Below the pieces are notes generated by a model. It did no database searches, had not been told where the DNA came from, and was given only the letters and a program-made list of their open reading frames with translations. A stretch of 64,000 nt of DNA from Sulfolobaceae archaeon (GTDB taxonomy: Archaea; Thermoproteota; Thermoprotei_A; Sulfolobales; Sulfolobaceae), in assembly GCA_038893355.1 (NCBI GenBank), contig JAWARQ010000003.1, positions 1 through 64,000 of the forward strand, read 5' to 3'. Within the stretch, counting starts at the first letter, position 1, and each line of letters begins with the position of its first letter. Position numbers and translations under genes: made by a program. This document shows positions 30,315-31,442 of this stretch, in pieces.

Positions 30315-31412
30315 AATAACTTGTACCTTAATTTTCCAATAGCACCTCCAAAGGTTTTTTTAATCCATTCGCCTTCTGGTAACTCCTCTCCGATTATATA
30401 CACTTTAGTACCCCTATTCTCCGCCATCTTTATCAACTCTTCCATGCTCTCCTCATCATAAATAATCAAGAATTCTACAGCACCCATATCTAAAGCCTTC
30501 TTTATAAGGTCAATCCCATAAATTACTAGCCCAGTATCCTTAGCTAAATTGTACTTTATATCTTCTAGCACCTTCTGAACTTCTATATACTTATGCTTAG
30601 AAAGTATATCTGATGCACGGCTAACTAGCTCTCTTAACCCAGCTTCCCCTTGATATGGAACATCAAATAACGGTTTTAGAACTAAATTCTTAAGCCTATA
30701 GTCCATGAAATCCCCCTCATAAAAATCCTCCTTTGCATAGCCCGGGCCTCCTAATAGAATTCCCTTAAGCTTCTTAGACTCTAGATAGGGCAATAGGTAT
30801 TCATTAACCTTCTCGCCGACCTCTTTTAAGAAATTCTTATACATTTCCTCAATTATCCTTTCCATTCTCCTCTGACTCTGACCGCCCATAGTATGCTTCC
30901 CCGGCACAAAACCCTCAAACTCGTCTAAAACTTGAATTCTCGTCCCTTTTAATATTCCAATAGTAGCTTGGTCCCTCTCCACAATAATTAGGCCATAAAC
31001 ATCACTTTCTTCAATCATATCCTCTAAGAACTCAGTGTGAAACTGCTTATCAGTCCTATAAAAGAAGATATTAACTGGCTCTGGAGGCGAAAAGACATAA
31101 CACTTGAATTCTTCATTCTCAAAGTTTTCACCACAAAATAACACTAGACCATTGGGCGGGGTCTTAGGTATCTGTAACAGCCTCTCTATTGCTGAAGTTA
31201 TTGCAGATTCTACGGCATCTCTAGTCCTCTTTAACTTTATATTTTGAGCTATAGAAGCTTCTTGTCGTAATAGCGATACTACATCAGAAATTGGCCTTCC
31301 TGGTGGGATATATAATGATAATAAAACAGTAGCCGGTGCCTTCCACTTTTTCAGTTCTTTTATTAATACCTTTAATTCCCTCTTACTTATCGTATACTCA
31401 CTAAAGACTCAT
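30311..31412 (-). CDS. prf1: peptide chain release factor aRF1 (non-canonical 5' end, see findings)
   Basis: Open frame 31408-30311 encodes [19 protein letters not shown] (NIKS-like), YRTDKQF and GGQS; first in-frame canonical start is GTG 31144. Confidence 0.93.
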
Positions 31413-31442
31413 CCCTAATCGGCTATTATTTAGTTATTCTCC

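Follow-up and report, generated by a model that had tools for sequence, protein, structure and literature searches.

The window analysed here is a 64,000 nucleotide (nt) stretch of DNA from a Sulfolobaceae archaeon (contig JAWARQ010000003.1 of assembly GCA_038893355.1, positions 1 to 64,000), and the gene of interest, on its minus strand, is that for the archaeal class-I release factor, aRF1. The source, a metagenome-assembled genome (MAG), totals 1.40 Mb in 17 contigs at 84% completeness and 32.5% G+C; the window's contig is labelled C3 in it. At the 5′ end of the gene the minus strand reads GATTAGGG ATG AGT CTT TAG TGA GTATACG. From the ATG (31412-31410) the zero frame continues through AGT (31409-31407) and CTT (31406-31404) to TAG (31403-31401), giving a minute open reading frame (ORF), ORF0 (31401..31412), of Met-Ser-Leu-stop. 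A second zero-frame stop, TGA (31398..31400), is directly behind the TAG and arises from the window's codons AGT GAG; the tandem TAG-TGA pointed out in an earlier, sequence-only reading of this DNA is thus present at 31403-31398. The exact 12-mer of the site occurs once in the 1.40 Mb genome.

The frame of aRF1 is +1 with respect to ORF0. Its main ORF (30311..31402, minus strand) runs for 363 codons from AGT at 31402 to the stop TAG at 30313-30311, and read from upstream the frame is TGA (31411-31409), GTC, TTT (31405-31403), AGT, GAG, TAT and so on. The TGA, which overlaps the ATGA of the ORF0 start, shuts the frame upstream, and the first canonical in-frame start, GTG at 31142..31144, is 88 codons into it. 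The ORF from that GTG (30311..31144, 277 amino acids) begins past LLSLYIPPG and NIKL, and initiation there would remove the N domain, the stop-codon-recognition domain, including the NIKL motif. The candidate shift site is CTT_T (31403..31406): a +1 slip from CTT to TTT yields MSL joined to SEYT..., with a product of 366 amino acids. On re-reading of the minus strand all coordinates of the sequence-only reading are correct, as is its claim that the aRF1 frame is closed by TGA and has no ATG, GTG or TTG before 31144, and the length that it predicted for a product of slippage at CTT, ~366 amino acids, agrees with the translation. The upstream TGA is not essential to the design: an AGY second codon always brings it along, and the ATG GGY variants do without it.

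By profile match and motifs the product is a true aRF1. It scores 452.4 bits (E 1.2e-135) against TIGR03676, the aRF1/eRF1 class-I release factor profile with a cut-off of 234.7, and it matches Protein Data Bank entry 3agk (Peptide chain release factor subunit 1) over residues 4-363 with E 8.1e-136. The translation contains GGQ, the motif for peptidyl-tRNA hydrolysis, and its QNIKLKR carries NIKL in place of NIKS, the type of motif involved in stop recognition; I56, K57 and G175-Q176 are invariant in the aRF1 alignment (A1). It is the sole class-I release factor of the genome, the second profile match being a pelota-like paralogue. None of the 44 best database matches (67-93% identity, 336-362 amino acids) reaches the 366-368 amino acids expected of an in-frame gene. 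The public N-termini, under the NCBI label 'peptide chain release factor aRF-1', differ by species (MKVL.., MKKW.., MYIPPG..) and start at the ELK helix or later. Entries with arbitrary downstream starts, 333-362 amino acids long, are found for Sulfolobaceae such as (by their NCBI names) Saccharolobus islandicus, Acidianus sp. HS-5, Metallosphaera tengchongensis and Metallosphaera yellowstonensis, and one begins inside the conserved LYIPPG block. Within the order, aRF1 has ~365-385 codons versus ~410-445 outside it in the same phylum, with only 31-46% identity; by this comparison the order has a shortened and divergent aRF1.

A survey of 169 aRF1 5′ ends, including the window's own, comprised 140 from the order and 29, one per family, from outside it. 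Thirty loci came from a first search, 100 more from that and an order-wide search, and 39 from a third (the 29 outside the order and 10 extra genomes within it). The order-wide search covered 325 genomes and found aRF1 in 309, the loci being chosen among the 150 matches listed; in the window's family (f1) all relatives with a match were taken, 45 of 46, the remaining genome (G301) having no match at E <= 1e-40. The loci were sorted mechanically by two criteria: the presence of a canonical start in the aRF1 frame at least 14 codons before the ELKKW anchor, and that of a zero-frame ORF which opens with a canonical start and ends in NTT plus a stop, such that a +1 shift from it enters the aRF1 frame. 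In 98 of the 140 loci within the order there is no canonical in-frame start within the conserved N-terminal region, which leaves the frameshift design as the sole way into aRF1; outside the order this is so for none of the 29. A strong comparative signal supports the frameshift reading proposed from the sequence alone.

In f1 the design is the only route in all 46 loci, many of them in single-contig genomes, and each has ATG AGY CTT T(GA/AG) in the same register. It is likewise the only route in 27 of 31 f3 loci (two others also have an in-frame GTG or TTG, and two have a TAT TAG variant), 8/8 of f8, 2/2 of f5, 4/5 of f7 and 11 of 14 in f11, the remaining three there having a possible in-frame start besides. 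The site is present in f6 (1/1) and f13 (1/3) too, each time with an adjacent in-frame GTG. Conservation across Sulfolobales of an ATG-NNN-CTT-stop arrangement, which the sequence-only reading had put forward as a check, is found in 46/46 loci of the window's family with variants in five more, and orthologues with an in-frame start and no conserved CTT-stop are not what the 98 loci show. By name, the design is seen in Stygiolobus sp., Metallosphaera yellowstonensis, Ca. Acidianus copahuensis, Ca. Aramenus, an Acidianus hospitalis MAG, Sulfolobales archaeon HS-7, Zestosphaera tikiterensis, Desulfurococcaceae archaeon AG1 and a Staphylothermus MAG.

Ordinary in-frame starts are the property of f2 (9/11), f4 (1), f9 (13/13), f10 (2), f12 (3) and 25 of the 29 outside-order loci; they are seen in Pyrodictiaceae, Hyperthermus, Pyrodictium, Pyrolobus, Acidilobaceae and Ca. 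Calypsonella. The other four outside-order loci comprise two without a clear start and two with a chance zero-frame site beside a normal start. Two f2 loci from one genus, L029 (G037) and L105 (G282), are odd: ~20 codons upstream of ELKKW they have ACG AGC TAC... in place of the ATG AGC AGC... of their relatives, there is a TGA just upstream, and neither a canonical start nor an NTT-stop is present. An ACG start codon or some other recoding could operate there.

The site was characterised from 107 examples across lineages. Its ORF0 starts with ATG in 78, GTG in 25 and TTG in 4, and is 3 codons long in 80, 4 in 25 and 5 in 2. The codon that would be in the P site is CTT (50), ATT (42), TTT (10), GTT (3) or TAT (2), so that NTT_T precedes the stop in 105/107. 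The stop is TAG in 66 and TGA in 41, and the base after it is C in 82, T in 19, G in 4 and A in 2. Within f1, ATGAG(T/C)CTTT is invariant in the 45/45 loci with a complete block, and 28 of 46 read CTT TGA C, identical to the nucleotides of the E. coli prfB site. Between families the parts turn over while the register is kept, which fits selection on a decoding event rather than on a sequence motif. TAA ends 58% of 952 long open stretches in the window's genome, yet it ends none of the 107 sites, and the stop contexts that are rarest genome-wide, TAGC (18/177) and TGAC (18/222), are the commonest at the site; the ORF0 stops look, from this usage, as though chosen to be weak or slow. A further hint, and only that as kin are not independent, comes from the codon after TTT in 25 f1 genes, where GAC:GAT is 15:3 versus 278:291 in the rest of the same genes.

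The codons behind the site are translated in the aRF1 frame, because their variation is mainly at third positions. For the 15 codons after TTT in 43 f1 sequences, which have no indels, mean identity to the majority base is 0.81/0.84/0.58 at positions 1/2/3, and the Tyr, Glu, Leu and Lys after the site are invariant despite synonymous change. This segment is upstream of every annotated start. It aligns both to residues 10-18 of 3agk and to the N-termini of those lineages that have a normal ATG.

The upstream sequence provides candidates for the promoter and the start of the transcript. A TATA-like box, ATATAAAT (31443..31450, minus strand), with a putative promoter role, is 30 nts upstream of a conserved G at 31420. 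With the usual archaeal distance from TATA to start, this G, which is preceded by a pyrimidine, is the predicted transcription start, and the predicted leader, GATTAGGG (31413..31420, minus strand), is 8 nts long, so that the ATG would lie within the mRNA. Across 43 distinct f1 upstream sequences there is a TTTTTA-type block at −38..−33 from the ATG with an A/T fraction of 0.84-0.98, and a conserved pyrimidine-G step at −9/−8; the leader bases GAT.AGGG are 86-100% conserved in the family. In f3 the position of the TATA (counted manually) puts the GUG at, or within ~3 nts of, the mRNA 5′ end, which suggests leaderless initiation at GUG. In f11 a GGUG is 7-9 nts upstream of the ATG. A search of public RNA runs with the locus of a single-contig f1 genome (L020) found only two, both hot-spring metatranscriptomes that shared a small part of its words; contigs from them match 1305-1350 and 2062-2454 of that locus, and the site, near 1490-1510, is outside these.

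It is likely that aRF1, here and in most of the order, is made by obligatory +1 frameshifting with negative feedback of the prfB type. Ribosomes would initiate at the AUG, on an mRNA with a short leader, and translate Met-Ser-Leu, at which point peptidyl-tRNA-Leu(GAG) would be held on CUU in the P site with UAG, or in most relatives UGA, in the A site. With aRF1 plentiful the tripeptide would be released and no aRF1 produced. With aRF1 scarce the stop would stay unread, the P-site tRNA would move +1 onto UUU, and decoding would continue in the aRF1 frame. Since aRF1 reads all three stop codons, the rate of termination at the end of ORF0 would report aRF1 activity and the loop would be one of negative feedback; such feedback by aRF1 is probable. 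We infer the slip and its efficiency from the anatomy, its conservation and the absence of another start, and the most economical reading of these would be that, as for prfB, the P-site tRNA slips while the A site is empty. That +1 frameshifting at the third to fifth codon, sensed through an unread UAG or UGA, is the normal aRF1 route across most of the order, from Sulfolobaceae with their model genera to Desulfurococcaceae-type lineages, is a wider claim that we favour with less assurance.

The decoding repertoire bears on this. The G34 tRNAs Leu(GAG), Ile(GAU), Val(GAC) and Phe(GAA) are among the 31 tRNAs found in the incomplete genome, and on UUU the Leu and Phe tRNAs can re-pair at three positions. 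The Ile and Val tRNAs that would be on AUU and GUU can re-pair there at only two of three, and this is one of several points that tell against the proposal. To our knowledge there is no precedent for a slip at a third codon with tripeptidyl-tRNA, and such a slip could be prone to drop-off. The window has T after the stop, where C is commoner, and part of the preference for C could be due to the choice of codons. At nine sites there is also a possible in-frame GTG, TTG or ATG (seven in families bearing the design, and chance sites in f10 and f12). Two f3 genomes, L091 (G250) and L092 (G249), have GTG ATG AAG TAT TAG C; there tRNA-Tyr could hardly re-pair on ATT, and therefore the shift, if functional, would be independent of re-pairing. 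The sample outside f1 is made up of the best-scoring matches listed and is not random, and relatives are not independent. Finally, one f7 genome (G044) is without a canonical ORF0 start. [Its locus, L097, shares the GGGGATTTCTATTTAGC block with two genus mates, with TCG replacing their TTG start.]

Nor was any stimulator of the prfB kind found. A prfB-like internal Shine Dalgarno sequence ~3 nts upstream of the shift codon was not found on comparison with the 3′ tail of 16S rRNA in the window's genome, ...GGAUCACCUCAC-3′. The sequence-only reading had described GGGAUGA as Shine Dalgarno-like; its position is as described, ending 2 nts before CTT, and its Shine Dalgarno character is only weakly true as it pairs poorly with the tail. 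For AGGGAUGA the match to the tail consists only of AGG plus a bulged match, 6-7 nts upstream of the shift codon. With complementarity poor and the spacing 6-7 nts instead of 3, an internal Shine Dalgarno stimulator is unsupported. In f3 and f7 a GGUGA that includes the start codon lies 5 nts upstream of the shift codon. No conserved RNA structure was detected by RNAalifold in 42 distinct f1 sequences from −14 to +76, the consensus being at −0.49 kcal/mol and column shuffles at −0.70 +/- 1.01, with 83/200 of these at least as low; for 31250-31550 there is no Rfam match at E <= 1 either.

The alternative that survives best, though it is unlikely, is that aRF1 is initiated in its own frame at a non-canonical codon, UUU or the one preceding it, with ORF0 a mini upstream ORF or 'start-stop' element that tunes initiation. 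Its model is infC, where initiation factor IF3 is autoregulated via an AUU start codon; there too a translation factor controls its own synthesis by non-standard decoding at the start of its mRNA, but the aRF1 frame here is without a conserved near-cognate start. The pairing data are in part congenial to this alternative. In f3, f5 and f7 the putative GTG start lies in GGUGA, a canonical 16S-tail match that could serve as a Shine Dalgarno sequence for a UUU 6 nts downstream, though a GUG at or near the mRNA 5′ end, as in f3, fits a leaderless start better. In f1, f8 and f11 (G)AGG is ~7 nts upstream of NUU, which is the normal spacing between Shine Dalgarno sequence and P site. GUC, GUA and GUU are near-cognates of GUG, and in three loci (f6, f13 and one f3) there is a real in-frame GTG in that place. 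However, the in-frame codon before TTT varies among GTC, GCC, GTA, ATA, GGA, CTA, GCA, ACA, GTT, GCT and GTG, and in many cases (GCC, GCA, GCT, GGA, ACA, CTA) it is two mismatches away from every start codon, and so the near-cognate start behind the same Shine Dalgarno sequence, which had been offered as an alternative when the site was first noticed, has no conserved codon at which to act. UUU is two positions off AUG, and initiation at UUU is not known to us from any system. A start in the aRF1 frame also leaves unexplained why there is a zero-frame ATG, GTG or TTG everywhere, why the ORF from it ends exactly on NTT-TAG/TGA, and why TAA is avoided in 107/107 sites.

Considerably less probable is that the public annotation is right, aRF1 starting at the next downstream TTG, ATG or GTG and the upstream block being a promoter or 5′ untranslated region element. 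Gene callers and NCBI do begin aRF1 at the ELK helix or later, but the starts chosen differ between species, and the first available to the window is codon 88, which would cost it the domain for stop-codon recognition. Moreover, the 15 codons upstream of the annotated starts are under selection at the protein level and align to 3agk (an A. pernix-type aRF1), and families with an ordinary in-frame ATG encode the same N-terminal segment. Correction of the frame in RNA, by transcriptional slippage or by editing that removes one U, is very improbable. A run of T is always at the site, 3 in f1, f3 and f8 and up to 5 in f11 (AGT TTT TAG), but polymerase slippage is known only at far longer runs than 3, and neither the stop nor its context would need conservation, yet there is TAG or TGA in 107/107 sites. 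As to a pseudogene, or a sequencing or assembly error in a MAG of 17 contigs and 84% completeness, where dropping one T of TTT restores the frame, the chance is negligible: the same arrangement in 46/46 f1 loci, single-contig genomes among them, excludes a homopolymer error as well as the TTG-to-TTT error considered in the sequence-only reading, and aRF1 is the only class-I release factor.

The frameshifting proposed for aRF1 has its closest counterpart in bacterial release factor 2 synthesis. In both, a short ORF0 ends in a stop read by the encoded factor, the main ORF is in the +1 frame, CUU can re-pair on UUU and C is preferred after the stop. aRF1 is unrelated to RF2 in sequence and fold, so that the likeness is one of convergence, not homology. 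The ORF0 of E. coli prfB has ~25 codons, whereas those of aRF1 have 3-5 and there is no convincing internal Shine Dalgarno sequence 3 nts upstream. The aRF1 sites also differ in using both UAG and UGA, as expected for an omnipotent factor, and AUU, UUU and GUU in the P site besides CUU. As the protein is of the aRF1/eRF1 type and the Shine Dalgarno feature is not shared, the site would work like prfB without being a member of its family, for which the consensus given in the text available is YTT_TRA_C (PMC3711429).

Other comparisons are instructive. The eRF1-like factor of Mimivirus (R726) and Megavirus (mg280) is described, in the accessible portion of Jeudy et al. 2012 (PMC3521657), as requiring frameshifting and readthrough, read there as autoregulation. 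It too is a class-I factor of the eRF1/aRF1 type that needs recoding at internal stops, with the difference that two events deep inside a viral gene are involved where here there is one at codon 3-5. In the same portion such mechanisms are said to be absent from archaeal homologs, whose aRF1 reads all three stops; for this order the present sequence comparisons contradict the statement of absence. Antizyme +1 frameshifting at UCC_UGA_U, a polyamine sensor (PMC1874602), likewise shifts at the codon that precedes the stop of an ORF0, and makes one product both sensor and effector of a feedback loop. Antizyme differs in sensing polyamines, in being eukaryotic, and in having a long ORF0 with a downstream pseudoknot or nascent-peptide stimulators. 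Closer in organism is Saccharolobus solfataricus fucA1, given in the available sections of a 2021 review (PMC8211752) as the only demonstrated cellular frameshift in Archaea. The fucA1 shift belongs to the same group of organisms, but it is −1, at an A_AAA_AAT heptamer, and senses no stop codon; the glycosidase that it concerns is non-essential.

No description of aRF1 frameshifting emerged from literature searches, though subscription papers or supplements (GeneTack cluster lists, tables of Sulfolobus transcription start sites or N-terminal proteomics) could hold one. The sections available of the 2021 archaeal recoding review (PMC8211752) do not mention 'aRF1', nor those of a 2016 frameshifting review (PMC5009743) 'eRF1'; on archaea, the same sections of the latter list −1 cases, a single +1 example from a haloarchaeal virus, magnesium chelatase, and 'possibilities in Sulfolobus' that are left unspecified. 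The accessible text of a paper on expression and cryo-electron microscopy of S. acidocaldarius aRF1 (PMC10516650) does not mention an aRF1 frameshift, and its deposited chain (8hku_ARF1) spans only the equivalent of residues 135-364.

If the proposal is true, this would be the first cellular +1 programmed frameshift in Archaea and the first self-sensing circuit for a factor of the aRF1/eRF1 type in a cellular organism, with the shortest ORF0 known for such a site. The prfB circuit would have been reinvented convergently, down to the same CUU_UGA_C nucleotides. An essential factor of widely used model archaea would be mis-annotated, its N-termini short by ~5-30 residues and inconsistent between species. 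The confinement of recoding-based release-factor autoregulation to bacteria and giant viruses, as the accessible portion of PMC3521657 has it, would be overturned. There would also be a compact (~20 nt) natural sensor of termination capacity in the eukaryote-like translation system of archaea, usable for studying competition of aRF1/aEF1-alpha with P-site slippage and for reporters.

As to its history, frameshifting is probably ancestral in the order, with several losses. A FastTree phylogeny (LG+gamma) places the frameshift state at the root with 6 parsimony changes, though it is a weak tree, built from 97 distinct proteins of 110 loci (some contigs being duplicated) and midpoint-rooted without an outgroup. 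At the f4 locus an in-frame ATG lies six codons upstream and ATT TAG is still kept in the old register, an arrangement that looks, from its sequence, like a loss of the design.

Elsewhere in the window's genome, a whole-genome screen for the same design gave 12 mechanical matches, 9 of them using TAA. Ten are ordinary genes, since the first in-frame start is only 9-34 codons in, and on this screen aRF1 is the only convincing case. One more match, at 212029 on the minus strand of contig C1, is a 157-codon stretch that goes 94 codons without an in-frame start and has a short zero-frame ORF ending in CTT TAA; probably it is due to chance or non-coding. At the other end of aRF1 in the window, a 207 amino acid plus-strand ORF (29691-30314) ends over the aRF1 stop codon (30311-30313), and with a 4-base overlap of their ends the two are convergent genes without a spacer.

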